Shown in pieces: positions 997 to 37,735 of a stretch of 64,000 nucleotides of DNA. Made by a program: the position numbers and the translations under genes. Each line of letters starts with the position of its first letter. Positions within the stretch are counted from its first letter, which is position 1. The stretch is from Schmidtea polychroa (taxonomy: Eukaryota), in contig CM097885.1 of NCBI GenBank assembly GCA_044892525.1, forward strand, positions 16,184,001 through 16,248,000, in the 5' to 3' direction. The notes below the pieces were generated by a model, which made no database searches, was not told where the DNA came from, and was given only the letters and a program-made list of their open reading frames with translations.

Positions 997-1620
997 AGTG
1001 AACTACAATTTGATAGAATCAATTAAAATTAAGTGTCAATTAGGCATTGCATTGATCACAGATTTCATAAAATTATACAAAAATTGGTTACAATTTAATT
1101 TTTTTATTGTGTTAAATCTAATCCAATTTATCAGCATTGCTTTGTGCATTTGACATTTTATCATTGCACCCTTGTAACAAAAAAATGTGAAAATGTCAAT
1201 ATGGGGCTCACAGGAACCTTGTACACATCAGAAAATGTGAGACAAATATTTGTAACCATAACGAGATCATTAGATCAATATATTAACATTTTATGAAAAA
1301 TATTTATTTTTATATTTTGATATATTTTAATTTGTATTTGCCCTTAAAAATGTTAAAATTTTACATTTCGTTATCAAATTATAATTTAAATAATTTTGTA
1401 ATATTTAAAATAAATGAGAAAAAAATTAACATTAATAATATTTCGAATTACTCTAAAGGCTAAAATACAATAATTATAAAATGTTTGTTTATCTACATCA
1501 AAATACAAATTATAAATATTGAAATTGTCAACGTCAGCGGAATAATTAATATAATAAGTATGATTTATGAATGTTGTAAAATGTTGAAATATTTTGATAA
1601 TTTTGTTAATTTTAGATAAA

Positions 1621-3033
1621 ATGTTTGCAAGCGTATGGGAACTAATGAAGAGGAATAAATTTGAATTTGATAATGAAATCAGCAGTGAATTGATATGCAG
1701 AATTTGCAACAGTTTAATGATAAAAGCTTGCCAAGCTCCTTGCGGTTGTGGCTTTTGTTCTGATTGCATTGAACATTATTTGGATGGAAGAAATAAATTC
1801 TGTCCAGGAGCAGCAAAACATTGTGAAAAGAAAATGATCAATTTCAAAAAAGATGTTTCTGAAGATCATGCAGCCAATTTAAGGATTTCAGAAGTGACAG
1901 TAAGATGCCCAGTGCAAAATTGTCAATTCAAAGATGAATTAGAGGTGATGGAGAGCCACATGAGAACATGCAACAAGCAAACAATAAAATGTCCATTCAA
2001 TAGAATCGGATGCGAAATGAATGAGAACATTGAAGGCCATAGCAAATTATTGATTGATCAGATCAGTAATATATGCAATGAGATGAAAGCAATGCGAGAC
2101 GAGAATGTGACATTGCGTAATGAAATTATCAATATCAATGTAAAATTTTATTTGTAATTAATTTTATTTATATTTGTGATTGTAGGTGAAACAGGGCAAT
2201 ATTGAAAGGAAAGAGGCGGAGAACAGAGATGAAATAGAAGAATTGAATGAGGAAATGGTGGTATTGAAGAATGAGAATCGCTCATTGAGAATGGAGATGG
2301 AGACAAATATTGGATCAATCAATCAAGTTTGATTATTGATTTGATTTACTATTGATTTGTTATTGATGCAAAGCAGGTCCGACAGCAAATTGAGGCGATT
2401 GAATCAAAATTCCAACAGCAAATTGATGACATGAAAGAGAAATGCGAGCAGCGGTTGCAACAGGTCAGACTGCAAATTGAGGCGATTGAGTCGCCTCAAA
2501 GGAGAGAAATAATTCATTTGGCATTTATAATAATTATCTTGATGCTCATGGCAGCTCAGATATGGCAGATTGAAACAAAATTAGCAAATGAAAAATATAT
2601 AAATTATGGATTTTTTGAATGGCAAATCGATAAATTTTCACAACAAAAAAGAAATGAATATATTTACAGCGAGGCATTTTATTCCGGGCCAATCGGTTAC
2701 AAAATGTGCATGGCGGTGTACATTGAGGTTGATTGGGTTTGGCCTGGTTTCTGTTTGATGCGTGGGGCAAATGATGAGCAATTGGATTGGCCGTTCAATC
2801 AATCCGTGACAATCGATGTGATCGATCCAGCAAATGGCAACATTTATATGAGCAAGTCAATGAAATATTCAGATTTGCCTGATGCAGCCGGATGGAGGAA
2901 ACCGTCAAATGACAGAAATGATTTAATTGGCTTTTATAATTATCGTACTGATACCAGCTCAATCTATCAATTAGCAGCCAAAAGTGATAAATTGCTGCTC
3001 AGGTGCAGAATTGAAAAATTCTTACAAATTTAA
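1621..3033 (+). CDS. TRAF-family adaptor/E3 ligase (RING - TRAF zinc finger - coiled coil - MATH); exons 1621-2139, 2186-2326, 2377-3033
   Basis: RING CRIC...CGCGFCSDC...CP, zinc finger CPVQNC...HMRTC, MATH motifs WQIDKFS, YSEAFYSGPIGYKMC, LMRGANDEQLDWPF. Phase-0 GT-AG introns 2140-2185 and 2327-2376 join one open frame of about 438 aa. AATAAA follows the stop. Confidence 0.88.
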
Positions 3034-4794
3034 AAAAACATTTCAATAAAGAATTTATTTTGGGTTTTGATTTGTTTTATTGTTTCCCTTTTTTATTATA
3101 TTTTTATTATATTTATTATATGAGATTATTATTGTGGTAATTATTGTCATTCTCGCCTTCCATCCGATATCATCATCACGTGGCGGAGCGCTCACAGCAA
3201 ATTGCCAATCGCAATATCAACATCAATTATATAATTAATTAAAAGCAATTTATTAAATCAAAAACATTTAATATAAATTAATTTGAATAATTATTATAAT
3301 TAAATTAATAATTAATTTGAAAGAAATGAAATTAAAATTCACCCGAATATAAGCGCTGACAAATTGCTTCAACAAATAAAACGCTCCTATGACGAGTGGA
3401 ACCGACGAGAAAACCGCCGCTGATGTTATATGAGTTTTGGAGAAATTATTGCTGTATTGAATGGCAGTAAAATGCACCTAAATGCAATACTAACACTGCG
3501 TTATATCAAATTGATAAATGCCTTAACATTTCGCCAGCTATTTGTGAGGCATTTAAACGAAAATCCGCAACAACAATACTGATCAAATGTTCGAAAATTG
3601 CTTTCACATCTGTTTTGATAAGTTTACCAAATTGGAGCTGTCGATTCAATGAGGGCAATCAATGCTTTCTTAACTCTATAACATTCTGTTACGAATTCTT
3701 TTTATTAATTAAACGAATTACTTTATTTAATCTTTCATAAAATTTTGATCTCTTAAGGTTTCGAGTCAGATTTACTAATAATATTATTGTTAATATAATA
3801 ATAATAATAATTGCATTTCTAATAATTGCCTTTCTAATCCTTTTTAAGAGCTAGTGACCTGATTTAATATTAAATAATGTAAGATTTCATAAATTTATTC
3901 ACTTTTTCATTCGCTAAATTTTCAAATACAATATTATTAAAACAAAAAAGATTTCATGTAAATTAATATTAAAATTCACAAATTTGATAATTTGAATGAA
4001 TTTTACTTATTAACAAACAACGAAATTTATCTTGAATTCTTGAAATTATAAGAAAAAGGGGATCATTTAGGAAATTTATAAATTAGCTTTTAAAGTGAAG
4101 TTGAGTCCAATACGTAATCTACATCAATACCTTGGGAGTAGATGGTTACGATCCCGCTAACTCACATACCTTCCCCCTCGGGGGAAAAAACTTTTTTTTG
4201 AAAAAAGTAGGTCAACTCAAAAATTTTTAATTTTTTTAAATTTTTTATAATTTTTTAAGATTTTCAACGGTTTTTTATAATTTTTAAAGATTTTCAACAA
4301 TTTTCAAGAGTTTTTCTCGAAAATTTTATATTTTTCTCAGAAATTTTATATTTTTCTATGGTTTTTCTCAGAAATTTAATAAATTTTTACAATTTTCAAG
4401 GTATCTACATAAATATTTTCAGAGTTTTTATGTAGGTCAACTCAAAATACTTCGAAAAATTTTGAAAATAAAGTAGGTCAAAAATATTTGGGGTAGAAAA
4501 ACTGACTTTATGCGTGCATGTGTGTAATGGGTAATAATTAAGGGATCATTCAGCAACTTTTAGGAATCGAAAATTTTTATAATATATTTTCAATAATTAG
4601 TCTAACTCAAAGTAGGTCAAATATATATATCGGGGGTAGAAAAAACTGATTTTATGCGTGTATGTGTGTAATGGGCAATAAATAATATAATTCAACAACT
4701 TTTAAGAATTGAAAATTTTTAAAAGTAATGAATACCTCATTTTAAAAAACGAGCGCGGTGATTATTATTATTATTATTATTATTACCCTATTAC

Positions 4795-4826
<32 letters not shown>

Positions 4827-4977
4827 CTTCGAGTTTATCTGACAAGATATTTTGACCCCCTACGGGTATTGCTCATTAATATTTTGCATTATTTTGTGTT
4901 TTGTGTTTTGCATTAATATTACAATTTCATCTTTAATAAAGTGAACAACAAATATGATTAAATACATTTATTAAACT

Positions 4978-5232
4978 TCAAATTTTTTTATACAACAACC
5001 AAGCTAAACAATGTTGACCGCATGTTTGAGTTAATGGATTTTGAAACATAGTTTTATTATACACAATAGGTTTTCCCATTGTTTGTAGTTTTGATATCAT
5101 CAAAGCCGGATAATAGAAACCCATAGGATCAAACACGAATATATTACCAGGTTTCATATATATAGCTATCCAATGTTCTCCACCAAGATGAGACGATTGA
5201 GTATTGACGACTATGGCTTGATTATTGCTCAA
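4978..5232 (-). pseudogene. adenain-like cysteine protease (Polinton A), 5' end disrupted
   Basis: GEHWIA (His), FDPMG (Asp), FQNPLTQTCGQHC (Gln/Cys); no proper ATG in frame. Confidence 0.85.
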
Positions 5233-5327
5233 ATAAGGAATTTTATCGAGAGGAAATACTCCTACAAATTCATTTCCTAATATTTGTTTTCTAGTTTGAT
5301 TAACCTGAACAGAACTACTTTAATAAA

Positions 5328-6105
<778 letters not shown>

Positions 6106-6278
6106 ACTGTACGCAAGCTGGTCTGATAATCACTTCTGGATTTCCTTTTTCGAATTTGGAACTCTTTTCTTTAATTTTGAGACTTCACCGAAACCGGCTT
6201 CGTCTTCGGGGTTCGTCCAAATCTTCTCCATTACAACAAGAAGATTTAATATTAAATTTAATGTCGGGTAATGAAGGA

Positions 6279-6770
6279 TTAGCGCCCATTGTTTATGATC
6301 TGCTTCCTATTATTCCACGTAATCAATGCACCGATAAATCCCCCTTGTTGTTTATATATAATTTTTCTCATTTGTTGACGATTTTTATTATTTACTAATG
6401 ATAGCAAAGGTCTCCTATGTTTACTCAATAATTGCTTTTTAGATTTTCTGATTTTAATCTTGCCTTTGACTACTTTAAGTATAATATCGAGTAAATCATC
6501 GACAACATAATTTGGAAATGATTGCAAAATACTGTTTCTTTTCATACTTGGTGCCTTTAACAATGTATTAAAAAACGGGAAACTCCGATGATTTTTAACA
6601 ACTTTTACTTTCTTAGTGGTTTTACTTTTAGGTTTAGGTTTAGGATTTTTCGAAATAAGATTCATTGCAGGAAAATTTTCTGTAATAAGTTCTTTTTTAA
6701 ATGGAGTATAACTAGTTGTTGGTGGAACTTTTGGTTGTTTTTCACCTGATATCCTTGTTTTTGAAAACAT
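6279..6770 (-). CDS. basic core protein, adenovirus pX-like at the C-terminus (probably frameshifted near its end)
   Basis: Lys/Arg-rich, ending QQGGFIGALI, which resembles the GG-F/I-hydrophobic segment of pX-like Polinton core proteins; lies between ATPase and integrase. Confidence 0.6.
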   Translation of the reverse strand: MFSKTRISGEKQPKVPPTTSYTPFKKELITENFPAMNLISKNPKPKPKSKTTKKVKVVKNHRSFPFFNTLLKAPSMKRNSILQSFPNYVVDDLLDIILKVVKGKIKIRKSKKQLLSKHRRPLLSLVNNKNRQQMRKIIYKQQGGFIGALITWNNRKQIINNGR

Positions 6771-6771
6771 G

Positions 6772-7412
6772 ATTTATATGTTTTGAACTTTGTTTTGAAC
6801 TTTGTTTATAAACCATGGCACCTTTTGGGTTGAAAATATCTGTTTTTACCCGTATATCATCAGGACATTGTTGTGTGAAATCGAGAAATATATACCCATG
6901 CGGTATTTTCGTAGCATCTTGAAATGCATTGATAAGAAAATTACGGTTATTAGGGTATGCCTTTCGTCCAAGAAAATCAATGACAGTTGCATCTCTAGGA
7001 TTCTTGACTATTGTACATTTAAATTACGTGTTCGATGTGCACCACCTTGATGAAATAGATTTTGTGTTATGAAGATAACTGTTACACCAACATGTCTGCT
7101 GATTTTTGTGAATAAATTATTGAAATCCTTTTCTTTATTAGCTTCCTGATATAAATCATCGATAATGATGACATCACCTTTCTTTAATCGATTTGACCAG
7201 TTTTTATCAAATCCCTTTACTATTTTCATGTTTTTCAACTTACAAAAATTATCTTGAGCCAATCCATGTTCTTCATCAGCGCCCCTATGCCAATAAATCT
7301 TATTGAATTTTGATTTGAATAAATCTGATTTTAGCAATTTGCAAACAAATAATGTTTTACCGCTACCGCTTGGGCCAACGATTTGGTATACTGCATCATT
7401 TCTTAATTCCAT
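6772..7412 (-). pseudogene. A32/FtsK-like packaging ATPase of Polinton A (small deletion/frameshift near 7005)
   Basis: Walker A GPSGSGKT, Walker B IIIDD, SRH..VIFITQNLF; continues in another frame as KNPRDATVIDFLGRKAYP...HGYIFLDF. Confidence 0.9.
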
Positions 7413-7421
7413 TTCAAGTTT

Positions 7422-7536
<115 letters not shown>

Positions 7537-7575
7537 TATATTATACAATTTAATGAACTGTTATTAAATGATATA

Positions 7576-8018
7576 CACTTAATTCTGTTTTTACGCGAAC
7601 TTTTTTTACGCGAATTTGATTTAACGCGATTCAAAAAAATTATTTCGTTCTGTTTTTACGCGATTTGATTTGATTTAACGCGATTTAAAAATATGTTTAA
7701 TGATATATTTTGCCACTTTTTGTTTTACTAAAATGATTTTTTTGTGATTTTTTTGTTAAATAATGAATTTTTTTTGTTAAATTAAAATTTTTTTTCGTTT
7801 GTCGTTATTTTATTCAACAATATATAATTAAATAAATAAAAAGTGTATAAAACACGTAAAAACCATGAATTTGTATACTTTAATCACATTATTTTAGTTG
7901 ATTTTGGAAATGAAGAACCAATCCTCTACTTTCATATGGACACCATATCTTTTTTTACGCGATGTTTTTACGCGTATTTTCGGGGAACGTATCTATCGCG
8001 TAAAAACAGAATTAGGTG
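7576..8018. mobile_element. Tc1/mariner/pogo-type MITE
   Basis: 23-bp TIR CAC(T/C)TAATTCTGTTTTTACGCGA, TA TSD (7574-7575 / 8019-8020), internal TTTTACGCGA sub-repeats, no coding capacity. Confidence 0.9.
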
Positions 8019-8051
8019 TATAAAGATTAAAATTTCATAGATTATTTAATA

Positions 8052-8489
8052 ATGCTATCAAATATAAATTATCGAGGAGATTTTGATGTTTCGAAAATGA
8101 AGTTCCCTTCCGGAAAACCACAGCAAATTGTCGATAGAAGCGGAAAATACCCGATAATATTTTTCAAGACAGGTAAATGTAGAATCATGGGATGTAAGGA
8201 ACCCTTGGATAATAATAAATTACAATATCGAATCAATAATATTAAAATCCAATCAATTACAGTTACTATGGATATAGGACATAGTATCAACCTATATATT
8301 ATGTCGAAAAAATGTGATTGTATGTTTGAACCGGAATTGTTTCCGGCACTAATACTAATAAAATATAACCCTATATGTGTCAATGTGTTTGCTAGTGGAA
8401 AGGTTGTCATACTTGGGTTGAGAAATTTGGAGTATAGGGAATTTGTTAACAATGTTCGAAATGAGATAATTTCATTGGTCAATTTCTAA
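8052..8489 (+). CDS. TATA-box-binding-protein (TBP)-like protein carried by Polinton A
   Basis: Two TBP repeats: LSNINYRGDF...IIFFKTGKCRIMGCK and IKIQSITVTMDIGHSINL...FEPELFPAL...VNVFASGKVVILG (cf. eukaryotic YEPELFPGL...IFVSGKVVLTG). Intronless and open. Confidence 0.88.
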   Translation: MLSNINYRGDFDVSKMKFPSGKPQQIVDRSGKYPIIFFKTGKCRIMGCKEPLDNNKLQYRINNIKIQSITVTMDIGHSINLYIMSKKCDCMFEPELFPALILIKYNPICVNVFASGKVVILGLRNLEYREFVNNVRNEIISLVNF

Positions 8490-8549
8490 TTGGTTAATGT
8501 TTGTTTTAAACAATATGTTTTCTGTTTAGAAATCATTTATTCAACAAAA

Positions 8550-8942
8550 ATGTACAACATACAAAGTTCCGCAATCAACTCAATGAAAGAGCATGCAAAT
8601 TATGGTAATTTCAAATTTTTATTATTACATTAATATATATATCAATCAATTATCCTGCAAAGATTATGCTTCTATTATCCACAAATGTATGATATACTGA
8701 AAGATCGAGATGCTGCAATAATTCGAGATTTAATTTACAACCAAACAAGAATTTAGATATTTGATATTATTAATACCTTTCTCTGGGATGTAAAGATCGG
8801 AAGAACTATGAAAGAAATGGAACCAGAATACCCCTGCTTTATTGGATGCAGTTGTTGTAATTTCCGATACCAAAGATATGTTGAATGGTCTTTGGTAAAG
8901 ACTCTTCGAAATTACCATTTCAGTCGAATTGTCTCAAAATAA
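8550..8942 (+). pseudogene. degraded unknown ORF of Polinton A
   Basis: Frame LCFYYPQMYDILKDRD...*IFDIINTFLWD...CFIGCSCCNFRYQRYVEWSL with one internal stop; AATAAA at the end. Confidence 0.35.
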
Positions 8943-9165
8943 ATCTTTATGTTTAATTATTTATTGTTTTGTCTTGTTTTGTAGTAAATAGTAATAAAAC
9001 TAGTACATATGATAATAAATTATATATAAAATAAAACATCTGACAATGCAATATCAATGCATTTGAATACAATTAAAACAAAGACATGCTATAATCTGAT
9101 TGGTTGATAGAGATCTGTCATATGTATAAAAACCCTGGACCATTTCATTTAAATCACTATTCACG

Positions 9166-9585
9166 ATGACCAAGAAAATATCAAGCATCGGAAAACCAAA
9201 GGTTGTTGAAGAACTTGTACAACCTTTTCAAATGTTCCACAACTACAAAATGTATTTTTTAAAAGAAGAAATCAATATGAAATTGGTGTCACCGATCAAG
9301 CTAATTCCGACTAAATTCCAATTCTTAAACGGGACGCTTTCAATGATAGATATTAAATCTATTGATGAGGTTTTCAAAAGGTTGAATTCAAATCTATCAT
9401 GTAATCAACATGCCTGGTTCAATAATCGATATGCAAGATTTTATGATGCCTTTGATGAAATCAGCTTCAAAGAAAACGAAAATTGGTATATAACAATTGC
9501 AATCCAAGGATATAAAGTTGATAATAATGATATGTATTCTCCGATTTGGAAAATTATATCTGCTAGACGTTCACAAATATTTTAA
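9166..9585 (+). CDS. hypothetical Polinton protein, possibly an OB-fold ssDNA-binding protein
   Basis: Open 139-aa ORF with TATAAAA at 9125 and AATAAA at the stop; the C-terminal ITIAIQGYKV...PIWKII loosely recalls viral SSBs (weak). Confidence 0.55.
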   Translation: MTKKISSIGKPKVVEELVQPFQMFHNYKMYFLKEEINMKLVSPIKLIPTKFQFLNGTLSMIDIKSIDEVFKRLNSNLSCNQHAWFNNRYARFYDAFDEISFKENENWYITIAIQGYKVDNNDMYSPIWKIISARRSQIF

Positions 9586-9734
9586 TAAATGTTGATATAT
9601 TTAATAAATGTATTTAATCATATTTGTTGTTCACTTTATTAATGTTGAAATTACAATATTAATGCAAAACACATGCAAACTTTAACAAAGACAATGTATA
9701 AACAAACTTTTATTATAGTTTTAAATTGTTAATA

Positions 9735-10084
9735 ATGACTGTAGGAAAAGGTTAATATGATTAATTAATTTTCGAATTATTTATTGTTTAGAATATATAA
9801 TCAACTTCTTGTTGGAAAAACTATCAGAAATAAGTGGTGTAAAAATCGATGACATATTAAATGTTTCTAACATATTAAATATATCAGAGAGTGAAGATTC
9901 TGGATTTGATGAAACTAATGAAGAAATTGATGATCCTAAAGAGATATTTATGGATTATATCGATCATATAAGTGAAAATATTATGAAGCGCGATGATAAT
10001 GTATGCAATAATTTTCTAGATTGTATAGATAATAATGTTATGAACTGTGGAGATGAAGATTGCGAACGTGTTAATAAATGTTAA
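9735..10084 (+). CDS. small acidic protein, two exons (9735-9750, 9792-10084)
   Basis: TATAAA at 9697, ATG at 9735; a 41-nt GT-AG intron (9751-9791) restores the frame to give MTVGKEYIINFLLEKLSEISG... Confidence 0.6.
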
Positions 10085-10312
10085 AAATTAGTTATTTAAG
10101 TTAATATTAAGCATATACATTTGTGTTAAACAAGGAATGTGCAATACAAGTGCATGGTTAACAAAGACATGACTAACAATTTGAATGTGCGTGTAAAATA
10201 ATAATAATAATAATTGAGTTGACCTACTTTTTTCAAAAAAAATTTTTTTTCTCCCCGGGGAGGGGGGGGGGGTGTATGTGAGTTAGCGGGCTCGTAACCA
10301 TCTACTCTTTGG

Positions 10313-10970
10313 GTGAAAAGTGACGGTTATGGGATTAAGGGAGGTCATTTATAAATTTTATAAATTATAATGTTAAATTAAACGTAAGTTGAGCATACAT
10401 AATAAAGTAATTTACATTAGCGAAGTTGGTACTTGATTGATGGTCATATTACTTGAGGGGGTCATAAATAATATTATAATTTTAGAATCCAAAATTTAAG
10501 TTAGACATTTATAAGTAAACAATTTACATTATTACATTTAGGATGAAAATAGTAGTGGTAGCACTTTAGAGGGTCATAAATAAAATTTGTAAATTATTAC
10601 AAATCCAATACGTAAAATTCATCAATACCTTGTGGTGATAAGTGACGGTTATGTGGTTTAAGGAGGGTCATTTATAAAATTTATAAATTATAATCTTAAA
10701 TTAAACGTAAGTTGAACATAAAGTAATTTACATTAGCGAAGTTGGTACTTGATTGATGGTCATATTACTTGAGGGGGGTCATAAATAATATTATAATTTT
10801 AAAATCCAAAATTTAAGTAAACAATTTACATTAATACATTTAAGAAGAGATTAGTAGTGGCGTCACTTTAGGGGGTCAAAAATAAAATTTGTAAATTAAT
10901 ATTTTGATTCTTAAATGCAAGCTGAATAAATATATAGATAATCTATATTAGTGAAATTCTTAATAAGTAG
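10313..10970. repeat. AT-rich tandem repeat, unit about 320 bp (2 copies); target of Polinton A
   Basis: AAGTGACGGTTATG...GGTCATTTATAAA...GAAGTTGGTACTTGATTGATGGTCA occurs at about 10318 and 10640; a related copy is at 54604-54900. Confidence 0.85.
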
Positions 10971-10973
10971 ATG

Positions 10974-12124
10974 ACTCCTAGCACTACACGAAGCAATCAA
11001 ACACTTCCAACATTTACTCGAAGGACGAAACTTAAAAATATTCACAGATCACGAACCGCTACATAACGCAATCGAAATGACGAATCCCTCACCAAAGCAG
11101 TTTAGACAAATCAACTTCATTTTACAATTCAACTGCACAATAAACTACGTAGCGGGAAAATCAAACATAGCAGTTGACGCTCTATCAAGAAACGAAAGTG
11201 ACATAAACTCCCTGGAATTCGAAGAGATAATCGAATTGGATCAAATTAAATCCAAACAACACTTAACAATTAACAAACTCCCCAATAAACACAGTTTGTA
11301 ACTACAAAAACTCATCGGAGTATTGCACGACGTCTCCAAAGAAAGCAACAAACGAATATTACTCCCGGAGGAATTTCACGAAAATTGCATCGAAAAAATA
11401 CACAAGATTAATCACTCGGGAAACAAAGTAACATTCGAACTAACACACAACAATTATATATGTCCAAACATGCGTGAAGACATCAAAAACTACGCCAAGA
11501 GTTGTCACAGCTGCCAATTAAACAAAACAACAGAAAACTCAAACCTCAAAAAGTAAACTTCCCAAGCAGCGAAGTCTTCGAAACAATACACACAGATATG
11601 GTAAGACCACTAACACCGACGATAACAACAAATACCTGCTGACAATTATAGACAGGAAATCCAACTAGTTTGAAGTAATCCCAATAAAAGAAATCACCGC
11701 AAAAAATATATGTGAAATGATCGCATTTAATTGAATAGATCGTTATGGTCAACCGAAAACAATCATAACCGATCAAGGCCGACAGTTCGAATCAGAAATG
11801 TTCAAAATACTCTACAACAAATACAACATCGAAAGGAACCGAACAACAGCTAAGAACCCACAATTAAACGGAAAAATCGAACGGTTCCACAGAACATTAA
11901 AAGAAAACAAAAGAACAAAAGCCAATGATCAAAATTGGTTAAATCATCTACCCACAATACTAATCGAAATGAGAAATTTTCGAAACTCAATAGATAATGA
12001 AAGTACAGCATACAAGGTTTGCGGAAAAGCAACAAATCTACCATCACTCAAAAACAAAACAGCAGATAACACAGAACCAAACAAACAAACAACTAACAAT
12101 AACAACGGAAATAAGAAATAAACC
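10974..12124 (+). pseudogene. Gypsy pol fragment (RNase H - integrase), A/C-rich family
   Basis: LLALHEAIKHF...IFTDH, GKSNIAVDALSR, HHCC zinc finger, TDQGRQFES, NGKIERFHRTLK; several stops and frameshifts. Confidence 0.9.
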
Positions 12125-13183
12125 TTTTGGGTTTTAGATTAATTCAAGTCGGTTCTCTCTGACTCCCAGTGTTCTTTAAATCAAAACAATGAACGACCCA
12201 ACGTATATTGAAACAACAGGTTCACAATTTATTATCACCACTTTACAATTACTAATCGAAGTTTTACACGATTCTCCGCTCGGCGTTGATGCTTTGCAAA
12301 CAAATAATATTCACCTTTTAGTCCTTTAGATTCTCTTGACTCACGTTTTCCTCGGTTTCTGTTTGGTTTGATTCCTTTTCACCTTTCCGTATTCTTAATT
12401 CTATTTCTTCTTTTCCCTACTTTCCCTAATTCGTTTACCAACTTTTCCTACGCTCTGATTCTTCGAACCCTAGCTGAGGCAAAATGCCGATTTTCTCTGA
12501 TTTTCCCTTTGCTTACTCCTCGAAATCAGGATGACAAATGGTTATTGCCGAGCCAATCTTTCGTTTGACATTTGCTCCTATATATTTGCTTCGGCTGTCA
12601 CCCATAATGGTCCAACGAATCCAGATAATTAATGGCCCTACCGGTTTTCCTACGCGCGCTATCTTCTCCTTACTCTTTTCCCATTAATCATTGTGTCAAG
12701 CTAATGGGCCCAAATCTTCCTTCTGTTTGCTTTTCTTCTTGTTTACCCAGCTCGGGTTTCCTTTATCTCTCGGGTTCTCCATTGGCTCGGGTTTCCCATT
12801 AGCTCGGGTTTTCCATTAGCCAATTAATTAATTAATTAACGTTTTCTGTTTTCATACATTTGAATGTTTTTCGACCCTTCCTAACCATTTTCTGATAAAT
12901 CCCTAACCATCATCTTGATGACCATTAGCTAATCTATACCTGTCCCGTTTTTCCCATTCGATTTCGATGATTTTTCCATATATTGATTTTTCTCGGATTT
13001 CCGGATTCTTGCCTTTCGTAATTGCTTTTGGCATTTTCTAATACTCTTTCCATCACACTTTCCTTTACTATTGATTCTGTGCGCGATCCCGCTTTTATTT
13101 GTCTTTTTTCTTCGCTTACTTTCTATTTGAATTATTATCCTAAATTTTATTTAAATTTTAATTTTAATTTACAAACCTCAACA
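12125..13183 (-). repeat. 3' LTR of element D (about 1059 bp)
   Basis: Matches 43951-44821; begins TGTTGAG on the minus strand immediately after the polypurine tract. Confidence 0.92.
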
Positions 13184-15372: not shown

Positions 15373-15629
15373 AGTAGATGGATTGGTCACCGCGAGAACA
15401 AAGACATTTTTACCCCCCCCCCCCGGCCGGAAAAAAATTTTTAAAAATTTTTTTCAAGGTCAAATTGAAAACAAAGACATATGACTCATCAAGGTCATTG
15501 AAACAAAGACCATGACTCATCCGATGACTCATTAAGGTCATTCTCAAGGTCGTATGACTCATCAAGGCCATATTATTATTTTTAAAAATATTATTATTTC
15601 TAATGTCTTTGTTCTCGCGGTGACCTACT
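15373..15629. mobile_element. 257-bp Polinton-terminus-derived mini-element
   Basis: Starts AGTAGATGG like Polinton A; 24-bp perfect inverted repeat GGTCACCGCGAGAACAAAGACATT; ends CTACT; no clear TSD. Confidence 0.6.
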
Positions 15630-15967
15630 ATTTGGCCTGCCAAAAGTTATCGTTCCCATCAACTTATTTCATCGATCGATAGCTTACTTTAAAGCTTGGT
15701 GCAAGACCTTTCGAATGAGCTATTGTTGTCATCACCATCTTCAATATTGACAAAGTTATTAACATTTTCCCAAGACCATTTTCAAAGTCATTTGACAATT
15801 TTATTATTATTTTTTAAAATATTATTTTTTCAAGGTCATATTTTAAAATTAAATTTTACAGAGTTTCCGCCAACAAAAATTAGTAAACGATAGCTCATTT
15901 TAAAGCCCAATTCAAGACTTTTCGTATGAGCCATATATCTCGTTATTAACATTATTATTTCTAAAGA

Positions 15968-16085
<118 letters not shown>

Positions 16086-17729
16086 ATTATTATTATTATT
16101 TTGAGTATTAATCTATATACTCCGAGTTTATCCGACAAAATATTTTGTCCCCCTATGGGTAATGCTCAAAAGGGTACTGCTCACGCTCAACAACTCACAA
16201 GGGTATTATTAAACAAATCAACAAAACATACATTTATTTAAACAATAAAATAATGTAAAATTAACAAAGGTAAACTAAATATTGATGTACTAGTATTCGC
16301 AGCAATATTGTTTGAAATTGGTAACGTTGAATTGATTTTCAGATATTCTATTGATCCCTTGATTGTTTGAAGTTCTCTTAATAATAATTCGATCTTTTTT
16401 AACAAATAATCATGCTTCTTATCAATATTGAAGATGGTGATGACAACAATAGCTCATTCAAAAGGTCTCGCACCAAGCTTCAAAATAAGCTATCGACCGA
16501 TGAAATAAGTTGATGGGAACGATAACTTTTCGCAAGTTATATTCAAATTATTCACGAATTTCTGATATCTATGATCATCCATTTCTCACTAAATTACCTA
16601 AGAATTTTTAACTAATGTACGTATGCCTTAATTAATATACCCTTGCGACATATTGAATATGACCAGTACCCTTACGACAAATACACATAGGGGGACAGAA
16701 TATTTTGTCGGATAAATTCAGACTACATATATATATAAAAACTTACAATATGCTATGGTTTTTATTGATTAATTTGTTGTATATTGCATTGATACATCAA
16801 AATGTCAGATTATATTTATAAATTAACTAAAAAATACACAAAAATACTATATTACCTAAGAATTCTGTTATGTTTCAAGTTAAATAATTGGTATGATTAT
16901 CAACTATATAAAAATTGTTATGAATCCAAGAATATTTTAATTAAATGGTACAACCAAAAACATGGATTTCTAACTAAATTGGTAAATTTATCTGGAAATA
17001 TTTTACTTAAGAAATTCCTATATTTAAAATAACCTTTCACTAAATTGCCTAAAAATTTGCTATATGGTATTGTTAAACAAAATAATAATAAAATTAAAAA
17101 TAATAATATTATGTCAGGGCCTGAAAAAATAATATAATTGTATGACTAATAAATTTGCAATACAAGTGCATAATTAACAAAGACTTTGCAATAAATGGGT
17201 ATGATTAACAAATACACTAGAAATATTATCTTTGCATTTTGTCGAAGATGATTATGGCAGTAAAATCAGAGGAGAGTCAATGGACAGAAGAAAAGCATCA
17301 TTATGATTTATAATAATTGTAAACATAATTGTATATATAATTGTAAATTTCCATTTATAAATAACACTATTTTAAAAATTAATACAAATATTAAAACAAA
17401 ATGAATATGTTTTAATCAAAAAGTAGTGCAATAAAACAATAAATTTATAAAAACAAATTAAAACATTTATTTACGAAACAATAATAACCAATACTACTGT
17501 AACACATAATTTCAACTTTAAAATATTGGTTTTCTTCTTTTCCAGCATCTTCATGGTTCTTGCGAAGATCTTTTTCCCATTTTGATGAACTCATGGGTAT
17601 CCCTTCATCATATCTTCAACATTTGGTAGTTGCGCCCAATATATTTAATTACCAAGATGATTCATATTATTTGATAATTTTTCCCGTCATAATCCATTAC
17701 CATAATTCATTTCATATAATATTGAGAAC

Positions 17730-18056
17730 TTACATATATATAGTATGATATTCATTAATCTGTGCTGAACAAGCTTGGCAATTGTGAACATTCTTCTCGT
17801 GACACTTAGAACAAACAATTACGTGACCACACGGTAAATACAAAACCGAAACTTGATTTTCCTTACAAATTGAACAAGTTAAATACCTTTTCTTAACATC
17901 GTTCAGTTTTTCCGTTAGCTTATTTTCAATCAAATCAGCTTTTGCTATCCATTCATAAATCAATCAACTATATCCCGGTTTCAACCTTAAATACATGCAA
18001 CTCCAAAAGTATTCATTCAGTGAATGGTTGTTTACCACTGTTTTTTCTAAATACAT
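17730..18056 (-). pseudogene. IAP/MDM2-type C-terminal RING finger protein with one in-frame stop
   Basis: CSICKENQVSVLYLPCGHVIVCSKC...CQAC...IYM; upstream ATG at 18056 is in frame, with TGA at 17964-17966; no BIR domain visible. Confidence 0.75.
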
Positions 18057-18124
18057 TAAATAACTAGATAACTTTAAAATGCATTTATCATAATTAAATA
18101 AATCAATCAAATATTCAATAGAGG

Positions 18125-20960
<2,836 letters not shown>

Positions 20961-24910: not shown

Positions 24911-25217
24911 AGTAGTGTGTATCTATCCCTAACGACCACAAGCCTCCCAACTGTTTTCATGTTTTATACCTATTTTTTCCCGTTTTATACCTATTTTTCC
25001 CTCATAAACGTAAAAAAAAACACTTAAAACCTTAAAAACCTATATCTTTTAATTTCTTTATTCCGAAGACATTTTGCTTTCAAAATAAAAACTTAAAAAA
25101 CAACAAAAATATTAAAAAAACAACACAAAATGTTAATAAAACAGGGAAAAAAAATACTGATAAAACTATGAAAAACGTTTGTCGGCTTGCGGTCGTTAGG
25201 GATAGATACACACTACT
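24911..25217. repeat. left TIR of C, itself bounded by inverted repeats
   Basis: AGTAGTGTGTATCTATCCCTAACGACC...GGTCGTTAGGGATAGATACACACTACT. Confidence 0.93.
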
Positions 25218-25220
25218 TGC

Positions 25221-31299: not shown

Positions 31300-32058
31300 T
31301 CAAACCTGTTTCAAATGTAAATACATTGAAATCTCGTCTCCATTAAAATCAATCAATTCTCCTTCTTGATTAAGAATTTTAAAATTAATATCCATTATAT
31401 ATTTTCTACATAAAGGTAAATAATTTGGAGGATTCATTCTTTCAACTATTTTATATCCCATAGGAACTGTGTTTGAGGGAAAGGAATATAAAACATTTGT
31501 TTGTTTACCATTATTATAAGAACCTGTTATACAATCACAATGAATATTTATTGTGTTTGTATTTATTATTTTTATAATATGTTCTGATGTTATAATAGAT
31601 TCTTTCTCAACTTTAGGTATGTTATAATGACTCTGTGTAAATCCTAAAATTGTTCTAAAGAAACTATTATTTTGAAACCTAATTCCTATATTCTTTAAAG
31701 TCATTATACATTTTGAAGTTGGTAAATCCATTTTAATTTTAATGATTCCATTTGTTTTTTTAGAAAGTATATTATTTAAATCTTTTATCTCATAAGCCCC
31801 GGGTTCTATTATTATTATAATGTTATCCTCGAATTTTGGGGGGCTTACATAACTAAATGTGTTATTATCTTTAGTTATATTAAAAATAGTATTATAAGCA
31901 CAAAACCATAATAGACCTAATTCATAATTTAAATTTTGATCTAATTTTATTGAATCTTGAAAGTTTATAGTAAAGTCTGATTCTTTTGAATTTATAGATA
32001 AAGTTCTTGAATATTTATCTGACATTATGTTTACCATTTTTTTTAAATTATCTTCCAT
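31300..32058 (-). CDS. minor capsid protein (penton, single jelly roll)
   Basis: NTIFNITKDNNTF, IEPGAYEIKDLN, INIHCDCITGSY, YLPL, NQEGELIDFNGDEISMYLHLK, typical of Polinton minor capsid proteins. Confidence 0.85.
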   Translation of the reverse strand: MEDNLKKMVNIMSDKYSRTLSINSKESDFTINFQDSIKLDQNLNYELGLLWFCAYNTIFNITKDNNTFSYVSPPKFEDNIIIIIEPGAYEIKDLNNILSKKTNGIIKIKMDLPTSKCIMTLKNIGIRFQNNSFFRTILGFTQSHYNIPKVEKESIITSEHIIKIINTNTINIHCDCITGSYNNGKQTNVLYSFPSNTVPMGYKIVERMNPPNYLPLCRKYIMDINFKILNQEGELIDFNGDEISMYLHLKQV

Positions 32059-32061
32059 TTC

Positions 32062-32496
32062 TTATAGTAGAGATTTTAAATCATTATAAATTTCTTGGAT
32101 TAAGGAAGTGAAACCTTCTCCTTTGAATTTATTCAATCTATACAAAACATATAAGCTTATAATACCACATATTTTAGTATTATTAGGTTGAACTTGTAAA
32201 GAATTAAAAGTATAGTCCTTCGACAGATAGTCTTCAACTTCTTTAGTAGGTTTAATCCCAAAAGAATCAAAGTATATAGATTTATTATATATAAAAACCC
32301 AATGAGATCCTTTTTCATTTGAATTTTGATAATTTATAATGATATTCTTTGGAGTGTCTTCTTTCAGACTCGACAATTCATCATTCATTAATATTTTTAT
32401 TTTTAAATTTAAATAATCTGCATAATCTTTTAAATCAAAATTTGTTTTTGTATTTATTCCAAATGTTTTTAAAAAATCTAATATTGAAGGAGTCAT
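32062..32496 (-). CDS. adenain-like cysteine maturation protease
   Basis: GSHWV, YFDSFG, QVQPNNTKICG. Confidence 0.92.
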   Translation of the reverse strand: MTPSILDFLKTFGINTKTNFDLKDYADYLNLKIKILMNDELSSLKEDTPKNIIINYQNSNEKGSHWVFIYNKSIYFDSFGIKPTKEVEDYLSKDYTFNSLQVQPNNTKICGIISLYVLYRLNKFKGEGFTSLIQEIYNDLKSLL

Positions 32497-32518
32497 TTTA
32501 TATTTTATAACTTCGTAT

Positions 32519-33316
32519 TTATAACTTCGTATATTTATTAAATTTATCTTTTGAAATTATTCCTTGTTTTAATAATTCTTTAGAAATCTTTAAAATATCA
32601 GAATCTAAATTATTATGTCCTGCTTTTTTAGCTGCTAATAGTTTTCTTAATTCAATAAAAAGATTGATTGGGTTTATCTCCTTACCCTTTCCCTGGCCCT
32701 GACCCTGGCCCTCTCCTTCTGTGACAATATAACCCCTTTCATTTTTATTTAAATATTTCTTTAAATCTTGAATATGTTTTGCTTTAGCACTACCATGTAC
32801 TAATTCTATTAAATTTAAATATTTTTTAATTTCTAGAAGATCAACATTCTCTGAGGGATATCCACAAACTAATCCATAAAAATCATCTGTAAATTCAAAA
32901 TCTAGGTGTTTAGTATTATAAACATTTTGTGAATGAATACGTGATTTATTTTCTGAATTTAAATATAACAGAAAGTCATGTTTATTAATTGTTATTATTT
33001 GATATCCTTCAACATTAATATTAAATGTAGGTTTAATTGTTTTACTTAAACTCACATTAATTTTAGGATCAAGTATAAGAGGTTTTATATTTAAATCTTC
33101 CAACCATGGTAATTCTTTTAAATCTTGTTTACCTTCCAACTCTTTAAATTTTAAAACTTCTAACTCTTTTATGGCTTTAATTGTTGGTCCTTGTTGTTGT
33201 TGGATTACCTCATTTAATATTATAGATTCAGCGTGTTGAGTTGTATCTTTTTTATTATATTTATCTTGTTCTGATTGTAATTTTTTTAAAAGTGCTAATC
33301 TTTCTTCATATACCAT
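32519..33316 (-). CDS. conserved Polinton/adintovirus hypothetical protein
   Basis: Open 265 aa; the C-terminal LRKLLAAKKAGHN...ELLKQGII motif is recurrent in Polinton core genes. Confidence 0.65.
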   Translation of the reverse strand: MVYEERLALLKKLQSEQDKYNKKDTTQHAESIILNEVIQQQQGPTIKAIKELEVLKFKELEGKQDLKELPWLEDLNIKPLILDPKINVSLSKTIKPTFNINVEGYQIITINKHDFLLYLNSENKSRIHSQNVYNTKHLDFEFTDDFYGLVCGYPSENVDLLEIKKYLNLIELVHGSAKAKHIQDLKKYLNKNERGYIVTEGEGQGQGQGKGKEINPINLFIELRKLLAAKKAGHNNLDSDILKISKELLKQGIISKDKFNKYTKL

Positions 33317-33338
33317 TTTAATGGTATTAAAAATGGTA

Positions 33339-33854
33339 TCATTTTGGTAAAGGATCCGTTGGAAAGGGTTTCAAGTATAAACCTTTACCATTTTTAATTT
33401 TACAAAGACATCCATTTTTTAAAGATTTACATATTTTTTTTAAATTATCTTTATCTTTTGAAGATAAAGATTCAGATGTAGAAATTTGATTTTTTAAAAA
33501 ATCATTTAAACCACGACCTTTATAAGGATCAAGATAAAGACCTTTCCCTCCCTTCATTTTCTCGATTTCAGTTTGTAGTTTTTCTTTTTCTAGGTCTGTC
33601 TTTTGAGATTCTTTAGCTTTTTGAACTGTAGTTGCAATTCCTCCAGCTATTCCAGCAGCACCTGATAGTCCGGCAATGATTGCAGGTATTAAAGCAGCTA
33701 ATGGAAGAATACCTCCGGATTTGGAGGAACTCCCTATATGTTCTTTAACTTGTTCTTTTACATGTTTTCCAATAAAATATTTCTTACCATCAATTACAAC
33801 TGATTTATTTTTATTTGAATTTATTAATTCTTGTAAAGATTCTTCAGTTGTCAT
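33339..33854 (-). CDS. core protein with an adenovirus pX/mu-like segment
   Basis: SGGILPLAALIPAIIAGLSGAAGIAGGIA resembles pX RGGILPLLIPLIAAAIGAVPGIA; repeated GKGLYL motifs. Confidence 0.7.
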   Translation of the reverse strand: MTTEESLQELINSNKNKSVVIDGKKYFIGKHVKEQVKEHIGSSSKSGGILPLAALIPAIIAGLSGAAGIAGGIATTVQKAKESQKTDLEKEKLQTEIEKMKGGKGLYLDPYKGRGLNDFLKNQISTSESLSSKDKDNLKKICKSLKNGCLCKIKNGKGLYLKPFPTDPLPK

Positions 33855-33870
33855 TTTATAATAAATAAAA

Positions 33871-34650: not shown

Positions 34651-34661
34651 GGCTTGTCGAC

Positions 34662-36056: not shown

Positions 36057-36069
36057 TTTAAAAAGTTTT

Positions 36070-37368: not shown

Positions 37369-37403
37369 TTTTATAATAAAAATTTAAAAAATGATAAAAA
37401 TCC

Positions 37404-37488
37404 GAACTCCGATAGCGAAGTGGGCTAGACTGGCACAGTGGTTCAAATGGATAGCGGTTCAAATCCTAACTACGGTTAGTTTTTTTTT
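37404..37488 (+). ncRNA. putative Pol III small RNA gene, copy 1 (tRNA-derived)
   Basis: A box TAGCGAAGTGG (37413), B box GGTTCAAATCC (37456), hairpin CTAAC-TACG-GTTAG, then T9. Confidence 0.6.
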
Positions 37489-37636
37489 AACATAAAATAA
37501 TATTAAAAATTTGAAAATAATATTGAAAATGGTGTGGGTATCTTAGATTTATATTTTATTTTATTTATTTTTATTTTATTTTATTTATTTTATTTTTTTT
37601 TTTATTAATTAAAAATTTAAAAAATGACAAAAATCC

Positions 37637-37735
37637 GAACTCCGATAGCGCAGTGGGAATAGACTGGCACAGTGGTTCAAATGCTAGCGGTTCAAATGCT
37701 AGCGGTTCAAATCACGTCTGAGGTTAGTTTTTTTT
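37637..37735 (+). ncRNA. putative Pol III small RNA gene, copy 2 (tRNA-Trp-like ends)
   Basis: A box TAGCGCAGTGG (37646), three GGTTCAAAT boxes, 3' GTTCAAATCACGTCTGAGGTTA, then T8. Confidence 0.6.

Follow-up and report, generated by a model that had tools for sequence, protein, structure and literature searches.

Cellular TATA-binding protein (TBP) has four DNA-kinking phenylalanines, two per repeat, contacts TFIIB through the EPELFP motif of its C-terminal stirrup, and presents, in the helices of its first repeat, the convex surface used by TAF1, NC2, and Mot1. Some viruses bring TBPs or TBP mimics of their own: those of the giant viruses work in cytoplasmic factories with an RNA polymerase that the virus itself encodes, and the late-gene TBP mimics of the herpesviruses (EBV BcRF1, HCMV UL87, and the KSHV ORF24 family) replace the host TBP on viral promoters. 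Little is understood of how Mavericks/Polintons regulate the expression of their genes inside the host nucleus; the searchable literature characterizes these elements through their genes for replication and for the virion.

A TBP-like gene in Polinton-related viruses has been labelled before, according to the available passages of the adintovirus paper, in which the legend of Figure 5 gives the label "TBP" to a gene of MELD (midsize eukaryotic linear dsDNA) viruses with an adintovirus-like PolB (Starrett et al. 2021, PMC8502044; preprint 10.1101/697771). The element described here shares with these MELD/adintovirus-like viruses the PolB, the rve integrase, the ATPase, and the adenain-type protease, and a TBP-like gene is common to both, a likeness by gene label only, as in those passages the label stands without analysis of TBP structure, conservation, or position (PMC8502044). 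TBP and TATA are absent from the supplementary text of that paper as far as the one file searched extends. In the full-text literature on Polintons/Mavericks with mention of TBP or TATA, a search whose scope was text other than subscription journals and figures, only the adintovirus paper and its preprint were relevant. Neither term is mentioned in PMC11161782, PMC11131425, PMC10328495, 10.64898/2026.06.19.733378, 10.64898/2026.10.13.758929, or 10.1101/2025.04.19.649669, and the single text match in PMC12220804 was discarded, being an author's name.

A minimal TBP in the window

The window, the whole stretch of DNA analysed here, comprises 64,000 nucleotides from Schmidtea polychroa. As the original prediction had claimed, it holds at 8052-8489 on the forward strand an intact ORF that runs from an ATG start through 145 codons to a stop without interruption. 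The product, hereafter mini-TBP, is a true homologue of TBP whose second repeat is complete and whose first repeat has no helices. It matches the Pfam TBP profile PF00352 with an E-value of 2.8e-15 and 56.3 bits (cut-off 22.9; 57.4 bits for a family copy), and a PDB sequence search with the window protein matched 35 TBP chains (E 1.5e-12 to 1e-7). A profile built from 48 family members reached 35 PDB TBPs with E-values of 1e-21 to 1e-13, the second repeats always being top-scoring. Taken alone against Pfam TBP, the N-terminal half of the window copy had no match, and the same half of three relatives gave sub-threshold scores of 13.8-20.2 bits; the N- and C-terminal halves of mini-TBP nevertheless align with each other (E 0.005). 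An antisense ORF at 8069-8482 (137 aa) was considered as a real gene and rejected, since it has no homology support and the TBP match is in the sense frame.

The AF2 model of mini-TBP reaches a pLDDT of 95.8 and a pTM of 0.84, a confidence that derives from an alignment of 48 sequences and from what the network has learned about TBP. When the model was compared with the PDB by Foldseek, all 44 matches with E<=0.001 were TBP cores, in alignments that span ~170 columns and the whole length of mini-TBP (TMq 0.66-0.78); this confirms the TBP fold and, together with the alignment of the two halves, the presence of both TBP repeats. The saddle fold of TBP is kept in mini-TBP: its C-terminal repeat is entire, and its N-terminal repeat is reduced to the beta-strands. 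The full S1-H1-S2-S3-S4-S5-H2 topology is found in repeat 2 and not in repeat 1, DSSP assigns no helix of at least four residues to residues 1-60 of the model, and in the alignment with the host's own TBPs repeat 1 lacks ~11 residues at helix H1 and 13 at H2, which is where the shortening claimed for the first repeat lies.

F38, F97, and F113, which together with the EPELFP motif we take to be the kink phenylalanines and the TFIIB stirrup, are invariant in the 48 family members. The fourth kink position is I26 in the MAFFT alignment or K22 in the BLAST alignment and is variable within the family, so the count of three intercalating phenylalanines kept out of four is correct. The stirrup itself reads FEPELFPAL, in line with the claim of a TFIIB-contacting EPEL motif; E93, E95, and F97 are invariant in the 48 sequences, P94 and P98 are each kept in at least 90% of them, and P94, P98, A99, and L100 vary hardly at all. 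Given the shorter N-terminal stirrup and the loss of one kink phenylalanine, TATA recognition could be altered or lost.

With cellular TBP (PF00352) and the TRF/TBPL proteins, mini-TBP has in common a homologous sequence, the saddle fold, the FxSGK strand motif in both repeats, and a C-terminal repeat that is complete and has both its phenylalanines and the EPELFP stirrup. It differs from them in its size (145 aa against a ~180-aa core), in having no N-terminal tail, in the loss from repeat 1 of H1 and H2 (~24 residues) and of one kink phenylalanine, and in being encoded by a mobile element. In a viral structure library, the model had its best matches, 26 with E<=0.001 (E 1.4e-8 to 9e-4), exclusively among proteins of large DNA viruses; those with names include an asfarvirus-like B263R homologue and proteins of giant viruses that are annotated as TBP or TFIID. 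A virus-encoded TBP fold is thus shared with the Nucleocytoviricota (Heterosigma akashiwo virus, Terrestrivirus, Marseillevirus, and the asfarvirus B263R group); however, their TBPs have 186-842 aa and only 9-20% identity to mini-TBP and, unlike the giant viruses, the Maverick encodes no RNA polymerase. Herpesvirus fold matches were weak (ranid herpesvirus ORF75, E 0.001; U58, E 0.005; BcRF1, E 0.011). In role, mini-TBP may be likened to the TBP-like factors that beta- and gamma-herpesviruses use for their late genes, as a nuclear DNA virus's own TBP-like factor. This would be an analogy and no demonstration of relatedness; those proteins have 440-1005 aa and no detectable sequence similarity to it.

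The same residues could be read in the opposite sense, as those of a decoy, which was the alternative offered with the original prediction. Mini-TBP would then bind TFIIB or Brf through its C-terminal stirrup, or occupy host TATA boxes, and with its helix-less repeat 1 would form no productive complex, so that host Pol II/Pol III would be damped or a host factor titrated. An invariant EPELFP stirrup, the loss of the convex helices of repeat 1, and the absence of one kink phenylalanine are all compatible with such a shut-off. We nonetheless regard it as unlikely, as the DNA-facing strands of both repeats are as conserved as the stirrup, which a pure protein decoy would not require, and as an element maintained in the germline in very many copies would pay dearly for a general shut-off. 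The two halves of the protein are similarly conserved, with 32% of the positions in the N half and 36% in the C half conserved at 70% or more.

The element and its family

The claim that the ORF lies inside terminal inverted repeats (TIRs) is upheld by the limits of the surrounding element, element A, at 4137-10306, both ends of which read AGTAGATGGTTACGA.CCCGCTAACTCACATAC in inverted orientation and whose flanks, CTTGGG (4131-4136) and CTTTGG (10307-10312), are alike at 5/6 positions. Element A, 6,170 bp long, is non-autonomous and derives from a Maverick/Polinton family by internal deletion. Aligned with a full-length family copy, it skips from family position -5184 to -2150, and its homology ends at about +2100. 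The genome contains a sister copy of this layout, with 92-96% identity, and the right end of that copy is an inverted copy of its left end over 625 bp. In the window, an outer inverted repeat of 64 nt (left arm 4174-4237, partner 10197-10260, 83% complementary) and an inner one of 74 nt (left arm 4902-4975, partner 9600-9673, 95% complementary) were found.

The protease, integrase, and ATPase genes of the window copy are broken, as had been noticed from the sequence. On the reverse strand, a fragment of an adenovirus-type cysteine protease at 4978-5316 (Pfam Peptidase_C5, E 4.3e-6, 27 bits, cut-off 21.3) covers only positions 12-58 of the 179 in the profile and maps to family positions -5567 to -5184. 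It is followed on the same strand by an integrase remnant left by the internal deletion (5354-5784), recognized by DNA homology to family positions -2150 to -1720 and falling inside the family's 396-aa rve and chromo ORF, and by a broken A32-like packaging ATPase (7008-7412, with Pfam RNA_helicase and Pox_A32 matches), of which tblastn recovers only residues 1-134 of 208 in one frame, in two pieces with 95% identity. The region between the ATPase and the TBP gene is occupied by a ~567-bp insertion (7449-8015) that starts in a (TA)n run, with (TA)n palindromes at 7415-7551; it is missing from all 29 other copies compared, in which ~7444-7449 joins ~8015-8016 directly. Downstream of mini-TBP on the forward strand lies a decayed p99 homologue (8679-8975, approximate limits derived from family +627 to +923), with residues 1-95 of 99 recovered by tblastn at 59% identity with one stop. 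Another neighbor on that strand, a 139-aa homologue of the family ORF p136 (9166-9585, 86-88% identical to the family protein), is also intact in the window copy.

The full family element measures ~19.5 kb from end to end, with TIR alignments of ~1.0-1.15 kb at 84-98% identity, termini that read AGTAGATGG..., and 6-bp target duplications, GACATT and CTTTAT, in two copies. Its PolB is a 1327-aa ORF with the motifs YADFES, NLRGYD, YIDINNLYG, KLYNNSLYG, and AGDTDS, whose language-model features match PF03175 DNA_pol_B_2 clusters at 0.97-0.98; for this ORF, Pfam gave only a weak Endonuclease_7 match and the PDB sequence search had no match. The 396-aa integrase matches rve (E 1.5e-5, 25.6 bits, below the curated cut-off of 32.6), rve_3 (E 0.0023), and Chromo (E 3.3e-4), the last two likewise below curated thresholds though all three are significant, while the ATPase (Pox_A32, 30.2 bits, cut-off 22.8) and the protease (Peptidase_C5, 26.8 bits, cut-off 21.3) exceed theirs. 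The ORFs p407 and p355 occupy the places expected of capsid genes, which in Mavericks/Polintons encode a double jelly-roll major capsid protein and a penton protein, and are conserved in metagenome relatives; p99, p136, p174, p355, and p407 had no match in Pfam. By its length, which falls within the 15-20 kb usual for them, and by its TIRs, target duplications, PolB, integrase, ATPase, and protease, the element that carries mini-TBP belongs to the Mavericks/Polintons and is adintovirus-like.

Conservation in the genome and in environmental DNA

Mini-TBP has a fixed place in the family element, adjoining the packaging ATPase, and its ORF is constant across copies, being open in 150/150 scored genomic copies drawn from 4182 first-look candidates. 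A second subfamily carries a 170-aa version of the TBP (178 bits against the family protein) beside an ATPase and an integrase that score 457 and 673 bits, respectively, and many further TBP-domain ORFs of 163-219 codons occur in the genome (one 5-kb piece was sampled). Relatives are also found in environmental DNA. One search gave 109 of them, with 101-232 aa, and another 107 sequence clusters at E<=1e-10; about 100 clusters consist of relatives of 145-160 aa. Matching metagenome stretches numbered 180, of which 80 were kept. In 13 of the 15 metagenome loci of at least 5 kb, the relative stands beside homologues of Polinton hallmark genes, and all five loci of at least 11 kb carry PolB, p407, p355, the integrase, and the ATPase. 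A scan of IMG/VR gave one distant relative only, with 27% identity. Mini-TBP is a regular gene of one Maverick/Polinton lineage; the original prediction did not know TBP as a standard Polinton gene, but within the present lineage the gene is standard and not the oddity of one element. It can also serve as a marker for this lineage in genomes and metagenomes.

The dN/dS ratios between mini-TBP copies were 0.07-0.40 in 11 pairs, and Fisher tests on four pairs gave p-values of 1e-6, 1e-6, 1.5e-4, and 0.036. These figures indicate purifying selection on mini-TBP and do not bear out neutral evolution. In a tree of mini-TBPs, canonical TBPs, and host paralogues, 49 mini-TBPs are split from 27 canonical TBPs and the three host paralogues with an SH-aLRT of 99 on both sides, which places mini-TBP and the host paralogues on opposite sides of the split. 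These data, with the ORF open in all scored copies and the synteny with Polinton genes, contradict a one-off host retrocopy, the alternative against which the original prediction was to be weighed.

A broader version of that alternative is that the ORF is a passenger, a captured and functionless fragment of a host TBP that is open only through the youth of the copies. Its neighbors are indeed nearly as intact: among 30 loci, p174 and the ATPase are intact in 27-28, p99 and p136 in 26-27, and the TBP ORF in all 30. Since the neighbors of younger copies are intact too, the openness of the ORF in the window copy is weak evidence when taken alone. However, a passenger agrees neither with dN/dS ratios of 0.07-0.40 nor with relatives that, at 40-65% identity, retain its length, its motifs, and its place among homologues of those same Polinton genes; the split from the host paralogues is deep, and the best match of mini-TBP to a host TBP-like ORF has an E-value of only 1.6e-9. 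This reading is already contradicted by the data on selection and synteny, and we consider it extremely improbable.

Promoters and proposed function

A TATA box (TATAAAG, 8019-8025, forward strand) lies 33 nt 5' of the mini-TBP ATG and is aligned with the TATATAAAG of the family copies. In the family element, TATAWAWR is found 34, 41, 37, and 36 nt 5' of TBP, p136, p103, and p165, respectively, that is, at four of 12 genes, a number that none of 20,000 random placements reached. Of 46 metagenomic TBP genes, 18 are preceded by the motif at a distance of 25-50 nt, where chance would put it in 2.2% (p 2e-18). Boxes at a fixed distance from the element's own genes fit a positive use of mini-TBP better than they fit the decoy, although the host TBP alone could serve them. 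The virion and replication genes of the opposite strand (from the ATPase to p407) have no TATA box within 30-45 nt, and if mini-TBP drives them, some motif other than the TATA box would be needed. The genome has a G+C content of 25-35%, in which TATA boxes are common and a fixed spacing is not.

We infer that the likeliest function of mini-TBP is that of an element-encoded basal transcription factor. Under the mechanism that we propose, the host machinery would transcribe the mini-TBP gene early from its TATA promoter, and the protein would then occupy the TATA-like boxes of the element, including those that three further right-arm genes have at the same distance. Its conserved EPELFP stirrup would recruit TFIIB or a TFIIB-like factor and, having no repeat-1 helices, it would escape the host regulators. 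As the helices contacted by regulators are absent and TFIIB would be recruited, transcription of the element is proposed to be independent of TFIID. That the ORF encodes a virus-type minimal TBP, a regular gene of its lineage, that acts by this mechanism on the element's promoters is an explanation to which we lean with some reserve. Among the sequencing runs listed for the element, none is recorded as RNA, and several small ones are only presumed to be. A bolder version, which we put forward tentatively and hold to be rather doubtful, is that of an animal-associated Maverick/Polinton lineage with a regulator-proof minimal TBP that forms its own TFIID-independent pre-initiation complex on TATA promoters of fixed distance. 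If true, no smaller viral stand-in for a general transcription factor would be known, and the very high copy number of these elements might find its explanation here.

A conserved and selected TBP encoded by the element points to a dedicated transcription step and suggests that Mavericks bring part of their own gene-switching machinery. Because its helix-less half-saddle has been kept across ~100 clusters, mini-TBP also offers a natural test of which parts TBP can do without.

A role outside transcription is suggested by the position of the gene, which always has the packaging ATPase on one side and a probable single-stranded-DNA-binding protein (SSB) on the other. Mini-TBP might be an architectural protein for replication, packaging, or integration, its saddle bending the origin, the packaging site, or the integrase synapse, and small DNA-bending proteins do help protein-primed replication elsewhere, as p6 does in phage phi29. 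Nevertheless, the termini of the element are G+C-rich (AGTAGATGGATTGGGCACCGCTGG...) and have no TATA-like box, and a DNA bender would have no obvious use for a strictly conserved EPELFP stirrup of the TFIIB type, which makes this role, to our judgment, quite improbable. The neighboring p136 is, from its predicted structure (AF2 model, pLDDT 89.8), probably an OB-fold SSB: in fold it comes closest to viral SSBs (Foldseek E 0.01; VIA Z 6.9-7.6), and an Atlas search with it gave no usable match. It looks like a replication protein and not like a partner in transcription, which counts against the basal transcription factor that we favor. Homologues of p136 adjoin the TBP gene in 21 metagenome ORFs.

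Fold and conserved residues of the mini-TBP

The ORF at window 8052-8489 (+) starts with ATG and runs uninterrupted for 145 codons, and its product scores 56.3 bits (E 2.8e-15) with the Pfam TBP repeat, whose curated cut-off is 22.9, and matches 35 TBP sequences of the PDB (E 1.5e-12 to 1e-7). The AlphaFold2 model, for which an alignment of 48 relatives served as input, has a mean pLDDT of 95.8 and a pTM of 0.84, and all 44 Foldseek matches in the PDB at E<=0.001 were TBP cores (archaea, yeast, plants and man), aligned over about 170 columns with a TMq of 0.66-0.78, in accordance with the TBP fold of the original prediction. The shortening of the first repeat proposed there is also borne out: residues 1-60 are modelled as strands only (2-10, 25-28, 35-38 and 42-48), residues 61-145 form the complete layout of strand, helix, four strands and helix, and, compared with the host TBP genes, repeat 1 lacks about 11 residues at H1 and 13 at H2. 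The N and C halves align with each other at E 0.005 and are about equally conserved across the family. As expected from the three phenylalanines and the EPEL stirrup first noticed, F38, F97 and F113 do not vary across the family, nor do E93 and E95 of FEPELFPAL, and the fourth phenylalanine position is occupied by I26 (MAFFT) or K22 (BLAST). We take these phenylalanine positions to be the ones by which TBP kinks DNA, and FEPELFPAL to be the C-terminal stirrup that contacts TFIIB. The family profile matched archaeal TBPs of the PDB best (80 and 79 bits), followed by a microsporidian TBP (74 bits) and, below it, those of plants, yeast and man (63-68 bits), and the better match in these PDB TBPs was always to repeat 2 of the target. 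In the model the saddle shape of TBP is kept, the TFIIB-type stirrup is complete and the first half has no helices.

Separation from host TBPs

Besides the canonical TBP gene, the source genome (loci L124-L133) has four or more other loci with a TBP domain; in three of them one frame, 215, 212 and 166 codons long respectively, stays open across both repeats, and one of them reads ELELFPAL, as a TBP-related factor might. Against the host TBP and its paralogues, the mini-TBP scored no better than E 1.6e-9. In a maximum-likelihood tree (82 rows, 151 columns, quick search, unrooted), 49 mini-TBPs and three long-branched rows previously grouped as canonical were split from 27 canonical-type proteins and three host paralogues, with an SH-aLRT of 99 on both sides. 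The canonical rows, which are nameless, comprised 28 hand-picked two-stretch matches of the exhaustive search and 2 from the word-indexed search; host loci L124-L126, whose frames are exon fragments, and giant-virus TBPs were left out. Because the tree is unrooted, it shows the separateness of the mini-TBPs and not their origin, and judged by its sequence the mini-TBP is not a host copy.

The full-length family and the window copy

The search of the source genome (781 Mb, 1012 contigs) gave 4182 first-look candidates, and all 150 mini-TBP places that were scored are open frames with 89-100% identity, so the ORF is constant among the scored copies. Mutual comparison of three copies, each with 15 kb per side, set the limits of the unit at about -14,700 to +4,800 from the mini-TBP ORF start, roughly 19.5 kb, with terminal inverted repeats that align over about 1.0-1.15 kb, termini reading AGTAGATGGATTGGGCACC... 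and 6-bp target duplications (GACATT, CTTTAT). Strand one carries, in order, a RING-finger ORF, a 1327-aa ORF, a Peptidase_C5 protease (26.8 bits against a cut-off of 21.3), p407, p127, p355, an integrase (rve plus chromo, E 1.5e-5, under the curated cut-off), p174 and an A32-type ATPase (30.2 bits against 22.8). Divergent from the ATPase, the other strand carries the TBP ORF, p99, p136, p93 and p165, and p103, between the last two, is back on strand one. The 1327-aa ORF was unrecognised in Pfam and PDB sequence searches; it bears polymerase and exonuclease motifs, has a likeness of 0.97-0.98 to PF03175-carrying clusters of the protein atlas, and is, on these features, a family B polymerase. 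The family is a Maverick/Polinton of adintovirus type. The RING-finger ORF (108 aa; L037:1235-1558 among the family copies; zf-C3HC4_3, E 5.7e-10) lies just within the left TIR, is a component of the full-length element and has a weak homologue in one metagenome relative. Part of a planarian-genome preprint describes Maverick elements as expanded in flatworms.

Element A, at 4137-10306, has a family terminus at each end, flanked by CTTGGG and CTTTGG, and is a 6.2-kb internal-deletion derivative: homology to the family breaks off at -5184 in the protease region, resumes at -2150, where the integrase gene ends, and stops near +2100. The identical layout recurs, at 92-96% identity, in a sister copy on another contig, and therefore the short form itself has moved. 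Of the copies compared, only the window copy has, between the start of the ATPase and the promoter of the TBP gene, an insertion of about 567 bp (7449-8015), which begins in a (TA)n palindromic run (7415-7551) and may be a small transposon or a microsatellite expansion. The observation that the ORF stays open while its neighbours are broken holds for this copy, in which the ATPase keeps residues 1-134 of 208 in one piece and p99 has a stop, but it is not special to the TBP gene, as p136 (9166-9585) is intact here and, in 30 loci chosen by TBP score, most neighbours are intact as well (p174 in 27, ATPase in 28, p99 in 26 and p136 in 27).

Selection and subfamilies

The 30 TBP ORFs compared (14 distinct sequences) share a length of 435 nt, and Nei-Gojobori dN/dS ranged from 0.07 to 0.40 in 11 pairs, not the neutral evolution that would have spoken against the original prediction. 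The window copy differs from the main family by 19 synonymous and 15 non-synonymous changes (Fisher p 1e-6) and from its sister copy by 9 and 15 (p 0.036); over the TBP ORF its DNA has 92% identity with the main family (34 of 435 nt differ), and the flanking alignments are at 77-85%. By these comparisons the gene is under purifying selection, and we find it scarcely credible that the mini-TBP is a functionless passenger.

A second Maverick subfamily, sampled once (L134; G000:C1:149213228-149218227), strongly resembles the first family in ATPase (457 bits), p174 (335 bits) and integrase (673 bits), and has a diverged TBP (178 bits, 170 aa, with an acidic tail) and a diverged right arm. This suggests that arms are exchanged between elements as modules, with a TBP gene retained each time. 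Many further TBP-domain ORFs of 163-219 codons are present in the source genome.

Relatives in other data

The word-indexed search returned 109 relatives of 101-232 aa (most 144-165 aa) at 32-88% identity, all with a precomputed TBP domain and some auto-named TBP by JGI. The exhaustive search returned 968 proteins at E<=0.001, 107 of them at E<=1e-10; the latter mostly align in one full-length stretch, whereas canonical TBPs align in two. The motifs NINY(K/R)G, P.Q, F.SGKCRIMGCK, IQSITV, FEPELFPAL and NP.CVNVF.SGK recur in the alignment. IMG/VR gave a single distant match and nothing closer.

JGI metagenomes held 180 stretches encoding relatives, and the ORFs of the best 80 of these were queried with the element proteins. 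Matching ORFs were found for ATPase (27), p136 (21), integrase (18), p355 (15), p174 (15), p407 (11), protease (9), PolB (8) and p127 (6), and none in these 80 loci for p99, p93, p103 or p165. In the same set, a Polinton hallmark other than p136 was present on 2/19 contigs below 1.5 kb, 10/25 of 1.5-3 kb, 13/21 of 3-5 kb and 13/15 of at least 5 kb, and the five loci of 11 kb or more each have PolB, p407, p355, integrase and ATPase. The TBP gene adjoins the ATPase there too, but with both in the same orientation.

Promoters, the neighbour p136 and proposed function

In family copies the mini-TBP ATG is preceded, 34 nt upstream, by a TATATAAAG box, which is conserved in the sister copy; that of the window copy is TATAAAG (8019-8025), 33 nt upstream. 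The two strands of the 10-kb anatomy locus contain 16 TATAWAWR sites in total, and four of 12 genes (TBP, p136, p103 and p165) have one 34-41 nt upstream, a number never reached in 20,000 random placements of 12 starts (mean 0.15 genes); the six genes from ATPase to p407 all lack one in that range. Among 46 metagenome TBP genes (of 82 matching ORFs; anchored by the N-terminal motif, with at least 80 nt of upstream sequence), 18 have TATAWAWR 25-50 nt upstream against a background expectation of 2.2% (p 2e-18). Given the fixed distance of these boxes, the mini-TBP gene is predicted to be transcribed from its TATA box as a unit whose leader is very short, a layout common to the other right-arm genes.

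The conserved neighbour p136 (about 110-140 aa; window 9166-9585 (+) and locus L038:6356-6763) has no Pfam family. Its model (pLDDT 89.8) comes closest to viral single-stranded-DNA-binding proteins (SSBs): the best Foldseek match is the phage Enc34 SSB (E 0.01), and VIA returned ASFV CP312R (Z 7.6), a phage-related DUF2815 protein (7.3), Enc34 SSB (7.1), T7 gp2.5 (6.9) and baculovirus LEF-3 (5.7), values below 8 being middling by the tool's own note. Going by the model, p136 is probably an OB-fold SSB of the element for protein-primed replication, and thus a protein of replication, not a partner in transcription, which suggests that the right arm is an "early" arm. We regard it as quite improbable that the mini-TBP itself assists replication, packaging or integration by bending DNA.

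Comparison of copies and relatives presents the mini-TBP gene as selectively maintained, syntenic across the lineage and equipped with its own TATA promoter. We favour, with moderate confidence, a protein that would bind TATA-like DNA on the element and recruit TFIIB, and whose repeat 1, devoid of the convex helices used by host regulators, would give the element its own start-up of transcription. A transcription factor and a TFIIB decoy had both been proposed at first; a decoy or shut-off factor seems to us unlikely, and the remaining probability falls to functions outside those named here.

Giant viruses are well known to encode TBP homologues, and these were the best matches to the mini-TBP in the viral structure library; all are larger (186-842 aa). 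Functional TBP mimics are also known in herpesviruses, whose proteins matched weakly in the same library. For Polinton-type viruses, a TBP gene is mentioned in Starrett et al. 2021 (PMC8502044) and in a legend of its preprint (10.1101/697771); the passages and section consulted of the former hold no discussion of it, and the searched full-text literature on Polintons, Mavericks and related endogenous viruses no other mention. We therefore rate the conserved, minimal, lineage-wide Polinton TBP as seen in print once and not studied.

Other features of the window

A second Maverick fragment (15373-20960) has the main-family terminus AGTAGATGGATTGGTCAC (one mismatch) at 15373. TIR-type sequence occupies 15799-16426 and 17731-18145 and has its partner, in inverted orientation, at 20607-20926, set among long (AAT)n and 9-mer repeat arrays. 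On its right, element A borders directly on LTR retrotransposon fragments (10400-13010; RT_RNaseH, Integrase_H2C2, DDE/rve), which recur at 43953-44821 and 54635-55717 (84-98% identity). Just to the left of element A, a host-type gene in two open frames (1588-3033, +) encodes a RING finger and a TRAF-type zinc finger followed by a MATH/TRAF domain (E 6.9e-18), and resembles members of the TRAF family. Another large element may lie between the arms of a 245-nt inverted repeat (24975-25219 and 38373-38617; 85% complementary), which are separated by 13.2 kb, and 31709-38325 resembles the flanking DNA of one fetched family copy.
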